The position numbers and the translations under genes were made by a program. 64,000 nt of DNA. Origin: an uncultured bacterium (GTDB lineage Bacteria; Eisenbacteria; RBG-16-71-46). The stretch's first letter is position 1. Each line of letters starts with the position of its first letter. Location of the stretch: assembly GCA_964609125.1 (NCBI GenBank), contig CAZSQX010000006.1, forward strand, positions 13,016-77,015, written 5' to 3'. Of this stretch, positions 12,839 to 16,746 are shown piece by piece. A model generated the notes under the pieces. That model worked only from the letters and a program-made list of their open reading frames with translations, had not been told where the DNA came from and did no database searches.

Positions 12839-13795
12839 TCAGAAGCCGCCGCCGGTCATGCGTGCCGCGAGCACCGCGAGCAGGACGAGGAAGCCCACGG
12901 CGACGTTGATCTTGAAGAACGCGAGGTTCACGTCCTCCGCCCACCGCTGCTCGAGCCAGAGCATCACGGCCGCGGTCGTGAACAGGATCGCGGTGAGCGT
13001 GAGCCAGAACGGGTTCGACCAGCCGGTGGGCGGGGCGATGAACCGGAAGATGAGCGGGTCTCCGTCGCGGTCCAGATTGAACGCCAGCCGCCACAGCGAC
13101 CAGGCGAGCGCCGAGATCGCACCCACGTGCAGCGCCCACGACACGCGCAGCGCGCGTGCCCTCCCGAGCCACACGACCATGCTCCGGACGCCGGCCTGGC
13201 GGTCGAACGCCTCGTCAAGCGTCGCATAGATGATGTCGAAGCCGGTCACCCAGCAGAACGCGAACGCGGCGAGGCCCCACGCCGGCAGGCCGTCCTGGAG
13301 TTGCGGGTGCGCCGCGGCGAAGCCGGCGAGCGGCGCGAGGGCCAGTGCCGTGCCGACCCCCGCGTGACAGAGCGGGGTGAAGCGCTTCAGGTACGGATAG
13401 AGCGCGAACACCGCAAGCGGCAGCAGCGCGACCTTGACGAACCAGGGGCCCAGCGCCGCGCACGCGACGAGGTAGACCGCCGTGCTCGCGAGCAGGAGCG
13501 CGACGGCCTCGGCGGGCTTCATGCGCCCAGCCGGCAGCTCGCGCCCCGCGGTGCGCGGGTTCCTCACGTCGAGGTGGCGGTCGATGAGCCGGTTGAGCGT
13601 CATCGCGGCGGTGCGCGCGCCCACGGCCGCGGCCGCGATCCACGCCCAGCGGCTGCCCTCGAGCGCCCGACCGTCCGCCGAGAACACACCGGCGAGGATC
13701 AGCGGCAGCGAGAACAGGGTGTGCTCGAAGCGCACGAACGAGGCGTACGTGCGCAGTCGGTCGGGGGCGGGGAGATCGGGGCTGGCGGTGGTCAT
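12839..13795 (-). CDS. ubiA: UbiA-family polyprenyltransferase
   Basis: FEHTLFSLP, NRLIDRHLDVRNPRT..RELP, YPYLKRFT, GFDIIYATLDEAFDR; multiple TM segments. Confidence 0.92.
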   Translation of the reverse strand: MTTASPDLPAPDRLRTYASFVRFEHTLFSLPLILAGVFSADGRALEGSRWAWIAAAAVGARTAAMTLNRLIDRHLDVRNPRTAGRELPAGRMKPAEAVALLLASTAVYLVACAALGPWFVKVALLPLAVFALYPYLKRFTPLCHAGVGTALALAPLAGFAAAHPQLQDGLPAWGLAAFAFCWVTGFDIIYATLDEAFDRQAGVRSMVVWLGRARALRVSWALHVGAISALAWSLWRLAFNLDRDGDPLIFRFIAPPTGWSNPFWLTLTAILFTTAAVMLWLEQRWAEDVNLAFFKINVAVGFLVLLAVLAARMTGGGF

Positions 13796-14392
13796 TCGGT
13801 TCGACCCAGGCGTCGGCCCGGGGCGGAGCGCGAGTCTATCGGCCACGCGGAGGGGCGGCCAACGCCACGGGCGAAGGCGGGCGGGCTGGTGACGACGCCG
13901 CGAGGGTGAGCCACGAGCGCTCAGGCCGGCACGCACCGCGAGGCGACGAAGCCCGCTGATTCCGGCGGCCGGCCCGGCCGGCGGGCTCCTCGCGATCGAG
14001 CCCGCGCCGGTTCGAGCCGCGGCAGGGACGCATCGTGCTGCTGCAGCTCGGGGCCCGCGGGCGGGATCCATCCCGTCCACCGCCCCGCAGGGACCCGCGG
14101 GGCAGGCGGCCAGCGCGCGCGGCGCATCGGGCGATCGGCCCCCGATGAACGACCCCCTCCGCTGCCCGCGGCCGCCGCCTGCTCCCACGGCAACCCGCTT
14201 CATGGATGGCGCCGGGACTCGGGCCGGCGCGACGCCCTCGCCCATTCGCAAGCCGCGGGCCAGCGGCAAGTGGGCCGGAACCGGTACCGGGACGGCTGGT
14301 TGCGCCGGATTTGCCGGCCCGCCCGTGTCGTCCGGCCGACGCTCGCGTGACCGGGGCGACGGCGGCCCGGAAGACGCCTCATCCTGAACAGG

Positions 14393-14422
14393 TTGACGAG
14401 CTGCACGCCTGTGCAGTAGAGT
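14393..14422 (+). promoter_or_regulatory. lexA sigma70-type promoter
   Basis: TTGACG (14393-14398), 18-nt spacer, TAGAGT (14417-14422); SD GAAGGA before ATG 14473. Confidence 0.7.
14401..14416. promoter_or_regulatory. Putative LexA operator (SOS box) CTGCAC-N4-GTGCAG
   Basis: Palindrome with 6-bp arms filling the -35/-10 spacer of the lexA promoter; same N4 geometry as the GAAC-N4-GTTC box. Confidence 0.65.
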
Positions 14423-14472
14423 TCCGCTCGTGCCAGGTCCGCGACGCGGACCCAACCGAGAAGGACCTCACG

Positions 14473-15072
14473 ATGCTCAATGAACGCGCGCGGGAGATCC
14501 ACTCCTTCATCCAGCGCTATCGCCGCGAGCATGGCTCGGCGCCGACCATCCGCGAGATCGGCCGGCAGTTCGCGATCACGTCCACGAACGGCGTCCGCTA
14601 CTACTTGAACCTGCTCGAGAAGGCCGGCTACATCCGCCGGACGGGCGGGATCTCGCGCGGGATCGGGCCCTCCGAGTCGCCCCGAGGCGGGATCCCCGTG
14701 CTCGGGCGCGTGGCCGCCGGCCAGCCGATCCTCGCCGAAGAGAACTGGGAAGGGTCGCTGGAGTTGAGCGAGATGTTCGGCCAGACCGGCGAGTTGTTCG
14801 CGCTCCAGGTCCGGGGCGACAGCATGGTGGACGCCGGGATCCTCCCCGGGGACCACGTCATCGTCCAGAAGCAGGACACGGCACGGGCCGGCGACATGGT
14901 GGTGGCCGCACTCGAGGACGAAGCGACCGTCAAGTACTTCCAGCCCCGCAGGGGGCGGGTGGAGCTGGTGCCCGCGAACGCGAAGTACCAGCCGATCGTG
15001 GTCGGCGAGGACTCCGGCTTCCGGATCCTCGGCCTGGTCCGGGGCGTCATCCGCACCGTCGGCCGAGCCTGA
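14473..15072 (+). CDS. lexA: SOS repressor LexA
   Basis: wHTH PTIREIG..STNGV, cleavage site VAAG, catalytic Ser in VRGDSM and Lys in ATVK. Confidence 0.97.
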   Translation: MLNERAREIHSFIQRYRREHGSAPTIREIGRQFAITSTNGVRYYLNLLEKAGYIRRTGGISRGIGPSESPRGGIPVLGRVAAGQPILAEENWEGSLELSEMFGQTGELFALQVRGDSMVDAGILPGDHVIVQKQDTARAGDMVVAALEDEATVKYFQPRRGRVELVPANAKYQPIVVGEDSGFRILGLVRGVIRTVGRA

Positions 15073-15086
15073 CCGAGGGTTTCGCG

Positions 15087-15119
15087 GGCGGGAGCGAGAC
15101 GCGCTCCCGCCTTCGTTTC
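15087..15119 (+). terminator. Intrinsic terminator after lexA
   Basis: 10-bp stem GGCGGGAGCG/CGCTCCCGCC, 5-nt loop, followed by TTCGTTTC. Confidence 0.7.
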
Positions 15120-15129
15120 ACCACAGAGG

Positions 15130-15143
15130 TGCACATCTGTTCA
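15130..15143. promoter_or_regulatory. Second putative LexA box TGCAC-N4-GTTCA
   Basis: TGCACATCTGTTCA 26 nt upstream of the tnpA-like start; matches the lexA-promoter palindrome in arm sequence and spacing. Confidence 0.55.
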
Positions 15144-15169
15144 ACCAGGTCCCCGCAGGAGGTCTCACC

Positions 15170-15646
15170 GTGGATACGAAGCTGGCTCCCCCCGTCCGCC
15201 GTTCGCTGATGAAGCGCTGGGAGCCCCTCTATCGCAGCCAGCTCCACTACCTGGTCACGTGGAGCACGCGGGGGCGGAGGCCGGTCCTCAAGGACCGCCA
15301 TCTCGACGCGATCCAGGCGCTGGTGCGCACCGTCTGTGAGGAGCGCGCGATCGAGCTGGTCGAGGTCGTGGCCGGCGCGGACCATGTGCACGCGCTGTTC
15401 GGGTTGAAGCCGGCGCAGAGCGTGGCCAGCGCCGTGCGCGAGCTGAAGGGGCGCACGAGCATGCAGCTGATGCAGGACTTCCCCGAGCTGCGCGTGTGGC
15501 TGCGCGGGAACCTGCTCTGGGACGAGCGCTACGCGGTCGAGACCGTGAGCCCGCTGCGCGTCGAGCGAATGCGGGAACGGCTCCAGCACATCCACCGGCC
15601 GCTGCACGAGCCCATGGTCCCCGAGGACTGGGCCGCGGCGAGCTGA
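15170..15646 (+). CDS. IS200/IS605 TnpA-like (Y1 HUH) protein, apparently lacking the catalytic Tyr
   Basis: HYLVTWSTRGRRPVL, HUH motif DHVH, ELKGRTS, FPEL, LW..RYAVETV; Arg where TnpA has the I..YI..Q tyrosine; GTG start with GGAGG SD. Confidence 0.8.
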   Translation: MDTKLAPPVRRSLMKRWEPLYRSQLHYLVTWSTRGRRPVLKDRHLDAIQALVRTVCEERAIELVEVVAGADHVHALFGLKPAQSVASAVRELKGRTSMQLMQDFPELRVWLRGNLLWDERYAVETVSPLRVERMRERLQHIHRPLHEPMVPEDWAAAS

Positions 15647-15753
15647 CCACCGGATCCGCCACCGGCCGCGGCGCGCATCCCGCTCGCCCGCCTTGTCGTC
15701 GCGGCCGGTGGAATCCCCTCGGGGCCGGGATCCGCCGGAGCGTCTGCGTTGGG

Positions 15754-16746
15754 TCAGCCCCGCTCCACAATTGCTTCGACGGCCTCCGGGCGGTCTCGCG
15801 AGGCGAGGAAGGCTCCGGCCATGACCGTGACGGCGCCGAGCATCTGGATCGGACGCAGCGACTCACCCAGGAACAGCGCCGCGGCGACGATGGCGATCAC
15901 CGGCTCGCTGGTGGCGATGAGCCCGGCCTCCGAAGCAGGTAACCTCTTGAGCCCAGCATAGAAGCAGCGGAACGGCACCAGCGTCGAGAACATGCCGAGC
16001 AGAAGGAACCTCCACCACGCCACGGCAGGGTAGCCCGCGGCGAGGATCCGCCATGGGGGCGTCACGCATGCCCAGAACAGTGCGGCCACGCCGAACGTGT
16101 AGAAGAGCAGAGTCTCGGGCCGGTACCTCGCGAGTCCGCGCTTCGAGTAGAGCACGTAGAAAGCGAAGATGACTGCGGAGGAGGCTCCCACCAGCCAGTC
16201 GAGAGGGCTCGCGCCGCTCGCGTGAGGGTCCATTCCGTTCACGAGCAGCGCCGTGCCGCCCAGAGCGAGGACCACCGCGATCACCGTCGCGGGCGTGGGC
16301 CGTGCGCCGCGCGCCATCTCCCAGAGCAGGATGAGCGCAGGGGCGACGTACTGGAGCAGGATCGCGAGCCCGACACCGAGACGGGCGATGGAGAAGTAGT
16401 AGCTGCCCTGGACCGCCGCCACGCCGAAGAGCCCGAGCACGAGGAGATAAACCGCGTCGCGTCGCTCCACGCGGAGCGCATTCCGATGGCGCAGCGCGAG
16501 CCAGGCGAGGAGCAGCGTGGCCGCGATGGCGAGCCGCAGCTCCACGACCACGAGCGCCGGCACCCCGAGGTCGCGGAAGACCGATCGGGCCAGGGTGGCG
16601 GTCGAGCCCCAGAAGAACGCGGCCAGGAACACATGGAGGCGGCCGAGGGTGCGTTCGTCCCGCGGCCGCCGGGAGGTCGCGGTCAGGGCGTCGGCCCCTC
16701 CGGCCCGGGTCCACGGGCGCGTGCGACCGGTGCCACGGTGAGCCAC
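15754..16746 (-). CDS. EamA/DMT-family transporter
   Basis: About 10 hydrophobic segments, two EamA repeats (YYFSIARLGVGLA..LQYVAP; GLKRLPASEAGLIATSEPV); start uncertain. Confidence 0.9.
   Translation of the reverse strand: MAHRGTGRTRPWTRAGGADALTATSRRPRDERTLGRLHVFLAAFFWGSTATLARSVFRDLGVPALVVVELRLAIAATLLLAWLALRHRNALRVERRDAVYLLVLGLFGVAAVQGSYYFSIARLGVGLAILLQYVAPALILLWEMARGARPTPATVIAVVLALGGTALLVNGMDPHASGASPLDWLVGASSAVIFAFYVLYSKRGLARYRPETLLFYTFGVAALFWACVTPPWRILAAGYPAVAWWRFLLLGMFSTLVPFRCFYAGLKRLPASEAGLIATSEPVIAIVAAALFLGESLRPIQMLGAVTVMAGAFLASRDRPEAVEAIVERG

Follow-up and report, generated by a model that had tools for sequence, protein, structure and literature searches.

The TnpA transposases of the IS200/IS605 family naturally act on lagging-strand single-stranded DNA (ssDNA), in which they read hairpins, and a tnpB gene is their frequent but not obligatory companion. 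Domesticated transposases are rare among prokaryotes, and the textbook case, RAYT, still cuts DNA. According to a survey of the Y1 superfamily, the HuH and Y motifs are common to all classes (PMC6006769); a conserved clade that lacks the tyrosine therefore stands outside the described diversity. ISCR elements are described as carrying an HUH-superfamily transposase gene under LexA/SOS control (PMC13393415). The gene analysed here is located in 64,000 nt of DNA from an uncultured bacterium of the Eisenbacteria lineage (contig CAZSQX010000006.1; this whole stretch is referred to as the window), has a GTG start and 158 codons (15170-15646, + strand), and is identified by profile, fold and alignment as derived from a Y1/HUH transposase without its catalytic tyrosine (hereafter the Y1 gene). 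An earlier note, made from the letters of the sequence, had taken it for a possibly domesticated, nuclease-dead TnpA homologue under SOS control. Our overall reading, to which we give a probability of about 0.6, is that it encodes a domesticated, non-cleaving, LexA-controlled ssDNA-binding factor that originated from an IS200/IS605-type Y1 transposase.

The Pfam profile Y1_Tnp (PF01797) matched the Y1 protein with 83.2 bits (E = 2e-23, cut-off 23), and the NCBIfam model for IS200/IS605 transposases (NF033573) with 81 bits (cut-off 55). By sequence, the best matches among solved structures were those of Deinococcus TnpA (2fyx and 2xm3), followed by IS608 TnpA. The AlphaFold2 model, for which 20 homologues served as input (predicted local distance difference test score, pLDDT, 77.8), has the TnpA order of elements, beta-alpha-beta-beta-alpha...beta-alpha. 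A Foldseek search of the PDB returned TnpA chains of ISDra2, IS608, IS200 and Sulfolobus as the top 29 matches to this model (E from 1e-8 to 3e-6, with 2xqc, 2xm3 and 2a6o between 1e-8 and 1e-7), while the Escherichia coli RAYT (4er8) ranked below them. The HUH motif reads D71-H72-V73-H74, its histidines being encoded at 15383-85 (H72) and 15389-91 (H74) and aligning with H67 and H69 of ISDra2 TnpA, as counted along the printed alignment. The transposase fold and the HUH site (DHVH) proposed in the earlier note were thus both recovered.

Conservation was followed in three sets of orthologues: 915 database proteins, nearly all of 157-158 aa; 49 loci from 49 species-representative genomes, nearly all of which carry the label Candidatus Eisenbacteria; and 81 loci comprising 80 metagenome loci and one Logan contig. 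The H-U-H pattern was retained in 48 of the 50 genome loci and in 109 of the 120 best database homologues. The TnpA core carries a series of invariant basic residues (TRGRR, VRELKG, PELR, R130 and R137). R130 and H142 were invariant or nearly so in the 50 genome sequences; H142, situated five residues after R137, was also invariant in an alignment of 20 sequences, and was a histidine in 69 of the 81 metagenome loci. Conserved extensions specific to the family are present at both the N- and the C-terminus. The C-terminal one ends in the tail WAAAS (15632-15646, + strand, the last five codons), which is kept across the Eisenbacteria family; among the 120 best homologues it reads WAAAS in 68, WAEAS in 21 and FAAAS in 12, and LAAAS also occurs.

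HMMER aligned residues 21-141 to 2fyx/2xm3 without a gap, and in this alignment R137 (M-R-E-R-L-Q, codon 15578-80) occupies the place of Y132, the catalytic tyrosine of ISDra2 TnpA within QQYIENQ. The replacement of this tyrosine by arginine had been proposed earlier from a manual alignment, in a register two residues upstream that pointed to R135; this residue is also an arginine, so that the substitution stands while the profile- and structure-based alignment assigns it to R137. Beyond Y121 the remaining sequence contains no tyrosine. All 50 genome sequences had an arginine in the R137 column, followed by leucine (or isoleucine). R-L or R-M was found at this place in 116 of the 120 best database matches, the other four not being matched by the motif search. 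The metagenome set (81 sequences) had 74 arginines, five lysines, one cysteine, one gap and no tyrosine at this position, and only three tyrosines occurred anywhere in the C-terminal third, all of them non-homologous and in the tail. By contrast, 82 of 116 outgroup Y1 representatives had a tyrosine in this column, and the remaining ones showed mostly gaps or visibly truncated or garbled C-termini, so that among outgroup transposases of full length nearly all carry the tyrosine. The family is also well delimited: in an exhaustive HMMER search of 1.8 billion cluster representatives its members scored 74-202 bits (fragments at the low end), whereas the matches outside it were ordinary Y1 transposases with at most 68 bits and at most about 35% identity, and a sharp break in score separated the two groups. 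The comparison with the Y1_Tnp profile, which the earlier note had suggested, revealed no catalytic tyrosine elsewhere, and the loss is fixed across about 130 orthologues and is not a one-off decay.

The genomic setting is that of a fixed host gene. lexA was located directly upstream on the same strand in all 49 genome loci, at a distance of 84-181 nt. The same held for all 74 metagenome loci whose upstream DNA spans about 170 nt or more; in the seven metagenome loci without an upstream lexA the sequence stops at the contig end. Most loci had the conserved order lexA, Y1 gene, convergent gene of an EamA transporter, bactofilin gene, parB and parA. Each of the 49 assemblies, including a complete chromosome of 4.16 Mb, contained one Y1 locus. 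Neither a second Y1 copy nor a tnpB gene was found in the window, where the next gene is that of the convergent EamA transporter (a ribA gene in some genomes), in agreement with the earlier statement that tnpB is missing. The identity of the Y1 proteins to the window copy tracked that of the LexA proteins (Pearson r = 0.85, 107 loci), as would be expected of two genes inherited vertically together. The open reading frame (ORF) was intact in all 50 loci, with 148-170 aa, and the ratio of nonsynonymous to synonymous substitutions (dN/dS) of close pairs, 0.02-0.15, was indistinguishable from that of lexA (0.03-0.11). Only close pairs were considered, since in distant pairs (median about 0.3) the synonymous sites of these high-GC genes were saturated or biased. 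The hairpins upstream and downstream of the Y1 gene differ from one another, and neither is repeated.

Intact reading frames, low dN/dS, fixed synteny and a single copy together exclude both a decaying orphan and multiple mobile copies. The checks of synteny beside lexA, of single-copy status and of dN/dS proposed in the earlier note therefore came out on the side of host recruitment, as did the absence of insertion sequence (IS) ends, and none of the findings named there as contrary, a catalytic tyrosine at another place, mobile copies with IS ends or a decaying orphan, was encountered. That the Y1 gene is domesticated, non-mobile and devoid of its nucleophile is accordingly very probable.

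The only rearrangement seen in this otherwise fixed neighbourhood beside parAB was the insertion, in several genomes, of a GTP cyclohydrolase II (ribA-like) gene between the Y1 and EamA genes (L010, 4565-5400; L022, 4631-5383). The lexA-Y1 arrangement is also shared by four contigs (L035, L043, L044 and L049), three of them with the EamA-bactofilin-parB genes too, and by one protein entry (P0057), which are labelled as Saccharimonadaceae, Limnocylindria, Gemmatimonadales, Methylomirabilota or Casimicrobiaceae. These labels are probably binning or labelling errors in metagenome-assembled genomes.

The upstream neighbour (14473-15072, + strand, 199 aa) encodes the SOS repressor LexA, as indicated by the TIGR00498 model (179.5 bits against a cut-off of 111), the Pfam domains LexA_DNA_bind and Peptidase_S24, and the self-cleavage motifs of its translation: the Ala-Gly site (VAAGQP), the serine (GDSM) and the lysine (TVKY). 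Its promoter (14393-14422, + strand), with the -35 box TTGACG at 14393-98 and the -10 box TAGAGT at 14417-22, was the sole sigma-70-like promoter called within 14250-15800. Between the two boxes lies the putative LexA operator TGCACGCCTGTGCA (14402-15, + strand), and in all 50 loci lexA is preceded by TTGAC, 4-5 nt, TGCAC-N4-GTGCA and, immediately after it, TAnnnT. A perfect inverted repeat in the spacer of a sigma-70-type promoter, as predicted here, is the classical place of an autoregulatory LexA operator. The LexA protein of Fibrobacter succinogenes is said to bind a motif of a similar type, TGCNC-N4-GTGCA (reportedly in work by Mazon et al. from 2004). Literature searches on the SOS response of Eisenbacteria and on the Fibrobacter LexA motif yielded nothing relevant, and TGCAC-N4-GTGCA would be the first operator model for LexA in Eisenbacteria.

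A second candidate operator, TGCACATCTGTTCA (15130-15143, + strand, 14 bp), ends 26 nt before the GTG codon of the Y1 gene, where the earlier note had placed a LexA box. This box, TGCACAT-NN-GTTCA, was conserved in all 50 loci, with invariant half-sites and two free central bases, the second half-site being GTGCA in two of them; it begins about 13 nt beyond the hairpin and T-run that follow lexA, and in 47 loci 19-31 nt separate its end from the start codon. Among the metagenome loci, 74 include upstream DNA, and 73 of these also carry the box. A search of the 64 kb for TGCAC-N4-GTKCA found two sites only, the lexA promoter and the Y1 box, against 0.13 expected, a number equalled in none of 100 shuffles. 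When one mismatch was allowed, just two extra sites appeared; this total of four against 1.68 expected was reached in 9 of 100 shuffles and fits chance. Between the box and the start codon, the block TCCCCGCAGGAGG (15150-15162, + strand), which includes the ribosome-binding site AGGAGG (15157-15162), was almost invariant in the 50 loci. Judged from these motifs, control of the Y1 gene by LexA is probable. A promoter drawn by eye, with the T-tail as -35 and TNNGTT in the box as -10, was weak, an A at position 2 of the -10 box being found in only about seven loci, and it is not claimed.

The sequence between the two genes begins with a terminator-like hairpin (15087-15119, + strand), which consists of a 10-bp G+C stem (15087-96 paired with 15102-11, loop AGACG; 15087-15111 in all) and a T-rich tail (15112-19), TTCGTTTC. 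Its core, GGGAGC...GCTCCCG followed by GTTTTTC, was found in nearly all of the 50 loci, where the T-run is stronger than in the window. A strict terminator scan made no call here; the conservation of the hairpin and T-run in the 50 loci was relied on instead, and it agrees with the earlier description of the gene as lying after the lexA terminator. The GGGAGC...GCTCCC hairpin occurs once in the window and once in each 8 kb locus. It was also considered as a REP-like (repetitive extragenic palindromic) repeat or an IS end, and this was rejected, the hairpin being single-copy and unlike the one after the Y1 gene. RNAalifold showed a 4-bp invariant core and little covariation in the intergenic region; the hairpin is therefore conserved in sequence and is not proven by compensatory change. 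The sequence of this element is kept among loci whose proteins have diverged to 58% identity, which exceeds the needs of a terminator, and it might be a relic of the left-end hairpin of the ancestral IS or a binding site.

The same linkage was found in a sister lineage, which comprises 11 of the 81 metagenome/Logan loci (L050-L059 and L076) and three separately recovered long contigs (L131-L133). Its Y1 proteins are 42-45% and its LexA proteins about 50% identical to those of the window. The lexA operator is of the same type, TGCACGCATGTGCA, and the same arrangement of hairpin, T-run and TGCACGCCTGTTCA precedes the Y1 gene. The genes follow each other on one strand in the order lexA, box, Tyr-less Y1 gene, DUF6504-like ORF (83 aa), DNA polymerase IV (Pol IV), DUF72, two genes of uncharacterised proteins (387 aa each) and a helicase (L131, 3904-12967; L133, 6182-14291; L051, 4189-7815). 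The polymerase carries the domains IMS and IMS_C and matches NF002677 with 282 bits against a cut-off of 256. The helicase has the domains DEAD, Helicase_C, WHD_HRQ1 and MZB, which we take to be the architecture of the mitomycin-repair helicase MrfA. None of the PADLOC defence models matched the Y1 protein or the uncharacterised neighbours of the Y1 gene in the sister lineage. This cluster, as predicted from gene order and motifs, is probably a large LexA-controlled repair operon with several uncharacterised proteins. On the same strand, the cluster opens with a gene for an uncharacterised protein of 214 aa, which overlaps the start of lexA.

Since both lineages share the arrangement, the pairing of lexA with the Y1 gene predates their split, and its context is one of repair genes. 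In all 11 sister members the first HUH histidine is replaced by arginine, with arginine or lysine still at the tyrosine column, and the protein ends in AACSRR, unlike WAAAS. The function common to both lineages can therefore do without the nucleophile and, in one of them, also without the metal site.

A possible mechanism can be outlined as follows. In undamaged cells, LexA bound to TGCACAT-NN-GTTCA would hold the Y1 gene off. It could do so by covering a weak promoter that belongs to the gene, or by stopping transcripts that start at the lexA promoter and run on beyond the terminator hairpin; in both cases LexA would determine whether the gene is expressed. After DNA damage, the RecA-stimulated self-cleavage of LexA would free the Y1 gene together with lexA. 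The Y1 protein might then, as a TnpA-like dimer, recognise ssDNA or DNA hairpins where forks stall or gaps form, and would bind such DNA without the covalent 5'-phosphotyrosine intermediate, hence without cutting. Arg137 could contact the phosphate otherwise attacked by the tyrosine, and the invariant basic residues of the core would serve the binding of ssDNA. The bound DNA may be marked, shielded or passed to repair or translesion factors. The conserved WAAAS-type tail resembles hydrophobic C-terminal degradation tags (WVAAA, ssrA-type), and it could make the Y1 protein short-lived after SOS shut-off; many SOS effectors are short-lived. To non-catalytic ssDNA binding as such we give an even chance. 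More tentatively, at slightly below even odds, a disarmed HUH/Y1 transposase may have been recruited to the SOS response as a dedicated effector before the two deep lineages diverged. With the ssDNA and hairpin recognition of the transposase, it would sense or organise damaged ssDNA without cutting it, and it might assist Pol IV or helicase repair.

Several observations weigh against the picture of a LexA-controlled, non-cleaving binder. The Y1 box differs consistently from the lexA operator, with GTTCA for GTGCA and with AT after the first half-site, which may not be a tuning of affinity, and the window contains no other canonical SOS gene that could display the same motif. A sigma-70 scan found no convincing promoter between the terminator hairpin and the start of the Y1 gene. 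The strong conservation of HUH in Eisenbacteria would be superfluous if the protein did no more than bind, and makes some metal-dependent reaction conceivable. Finally, a conserved hairpin lies on either side of the gene, and the model accounts for neither.

The conserved HUH motif is an argument for the main alternative, a hydrolytic HUH nuclease, in which the metal would activate water in place of the tyrosine and Arg137 would stabilise the transition state. The product would then be an SOS-induced, structure-specific ssDNA endonuclease that forms no covalent intermediate, and the conserved H142 could replace the glutamine metal ligand described in PMC6006769. We consider this unlikely, given that no hydrolytic HUH enzyme is described in that survey and that the sister lineage keeps the gene, its linkage to lexA and the arginine, yet has lost the first HUH histidine in 11 of 11 members. 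Another explanation, also doubtful, could be that the protein is a regulator or partner which tunes the SOS response by binding LexA, RecA, the beta clamp, Pol IV or the hairpins of its own or the lexA transcript. The obligate pairing with lexA in about 130 loci would suit such a role, as would the conserved hairpins in the lexA leader, between the genes and after the Y1 gene, and the conserved family-specific extensions at both termini; however, conservation is highest on the surface of the TnpA core, whose many invariant basic residues fit nucleic-acid binding in general.

A dominant-negative guard, that is, a Tyr-less paralogue that occupies the end hairpins of IS200/IS605 elements or poisons TnpA dimers during the SOS response, at a time of abundant ssDNA, appears very improbable. 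The idea draws on TnpA active sites being built in trans from two monomers and on the triggering of ISDra2 transposition by irradiation (PMC3597680 and PMC2806898, respectively). Identity to ordinary TnpAs of only about 30% nevertheless makes heterodimers or a shared hairpin specificity unlikely, no IS200/IS605 copy is present within the window, and phylum-wide conservation with a co-diverging LexA points to an ever-present host target. As for an ordinary or decaying IS200 remnant that came to lie beside lexA by chance, with the palindrome as a chance match or an IS-end structure, the public annotation ("IS200/IS605 family transposase" or "RayT") and the passed NCBIfam transposase model are in its favour, but it is refuted by the intact ORF in 50 of 50 loci, the low dN/dS, the fixed synteny, the single copy and the invariant arginine, while the box is of the lexA-operator type and conserved across two lineages; its chance of being correct is close to nil. 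The database label given to these genes is misleading.

Further conserved elements lie on either side of the two genes. The leader of lexA (14423-14472) contains a conserved CGTGCCAGG motif, after which most loci show a stem of the GGTCC...GGACC type with inner bases that vary between species; in the window this is the conserved hairpin GGTCCGCGACGCGGACC (14436-14452, + strand). The folding of the leader had a z value of -3.27, none of 200 shuffles being as good, and the hairpin may serve to control lexA after transcription. Upstream of the lexA promoter, about 690 nt (13706-14392) separate it from a divergent UbiA gene and contain no ORF assignable to a family. On the other side, 12 nt past the stop codon of the Y1 gene, a long G+C hairpin (15658-15712, + strand) is formed by a stem of about 15 bp and a 23-nt loop from CGCATC. 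A hairpin of 12-17 pairs with a loop of 22-28 nt occurs in the same place in about 30 of the 50 loci, and its stems co-vary (CGGCCGCGGCG, CGATCGCAC and GATCGTGACC). A T-tail is missing, and the element might act as a terminator without a tail, as part of the 3' untranslated region or as a DNA hairpin. A search of 14200-15900 against Rfam at a permissive E-value gave a chance miRNA match only, so the three conserved hairpins correspond to no known RNA family.

The locus thus presents an HUH transposase that has lost its nucleophile yet is under strong selection and, throughout an uncultured phylum as well as in a sister lineage, stays tied to lexA and its operator. If the proposed reading is true, the bacterial SOS (DNA-damage) response would gain a new protein family and component, the Y1 HUH superfamily would have its first member that serves a host function without a nucleophile, and it would be apparent that the module by which IS200/IS605 transposases read ssDNA and hairpins can be reused without catalysis. 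To our knowledge, no SOS regulon has been described that includes a protein derived from a Y1/HUH enzyme, and neither a Tyr-less Y1 family nor an SOS-regulon gene of Y1 origin came up in literature searches. The protein also offers a convenient handle for experiments, with only 158 aa, a defined candidate operator and the obvious reversion R137Y.

Among known systems, the TnpA proteins of ISDra2, IS608 and IS200 share with the Y1 protein the fold, the profile, the small size and the HUH motif on the same strand, as well as the core motifs W.T+.R..L, LKG, PEL+ and W..xY..xTV. Unlike them, it has lost the catalytic tyrosine (Y---Q, class 1 in PMC6006769), which is not present in any member of the family, and has extra conserved segments at the N-terminus (1-20) and at the C-terminus (...WAAAS). 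Its gene further differs in lacking tnpB as well as repeated subterminal hairpins, in being a single copy in a fixed position, and in being under purifying selection of the host type. RAYT (TnpA-REP) provides the precedent of a single-copy, vertically inherited host gene that arose from a Y1 transposase and has a related fold (4er8). However, RAYTs retain the tyrosine (Y---NP, PMC6006769) and sit among the REP repeats and bacterial interspersed mosaic elements (BIMEs) that they process, whereas the C-terminal helix of the Y1 protein is without tyrosine, the hairpin of its gene is unrepeated in the window and in the 8 kb loci, and the conserved partner is lexA and not REPs. Consistent with this, the Y1 protein scored 42.7 bits with the NCBIfam RAYT model NF047646, below the cut-off of 80, and the sister lineage 31 bits.

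In its position the Y1 gene resembles the SOS genes classically found adjacent to lexA (sulA, dinB and the imuA-imuB-dnaE2 cassettes), lying directly 3' of lexA behind a LexA-type operator and, in the sister lineage, sharing a cluster with Pol IV, although its family is unrelated to SulA, ImuA and UmuD. The nearest parallel is the transposase of ISCR elements, likewise a LexA-regulated gene of the HUH superfamily (PMC13393415). The ISCR enzyme is, however, an active transposase of a mobile element, and its control by LexA serves transposition, whereas the Y1 gene described here is immobile, without a nucleophile and distributed phylum-wide.

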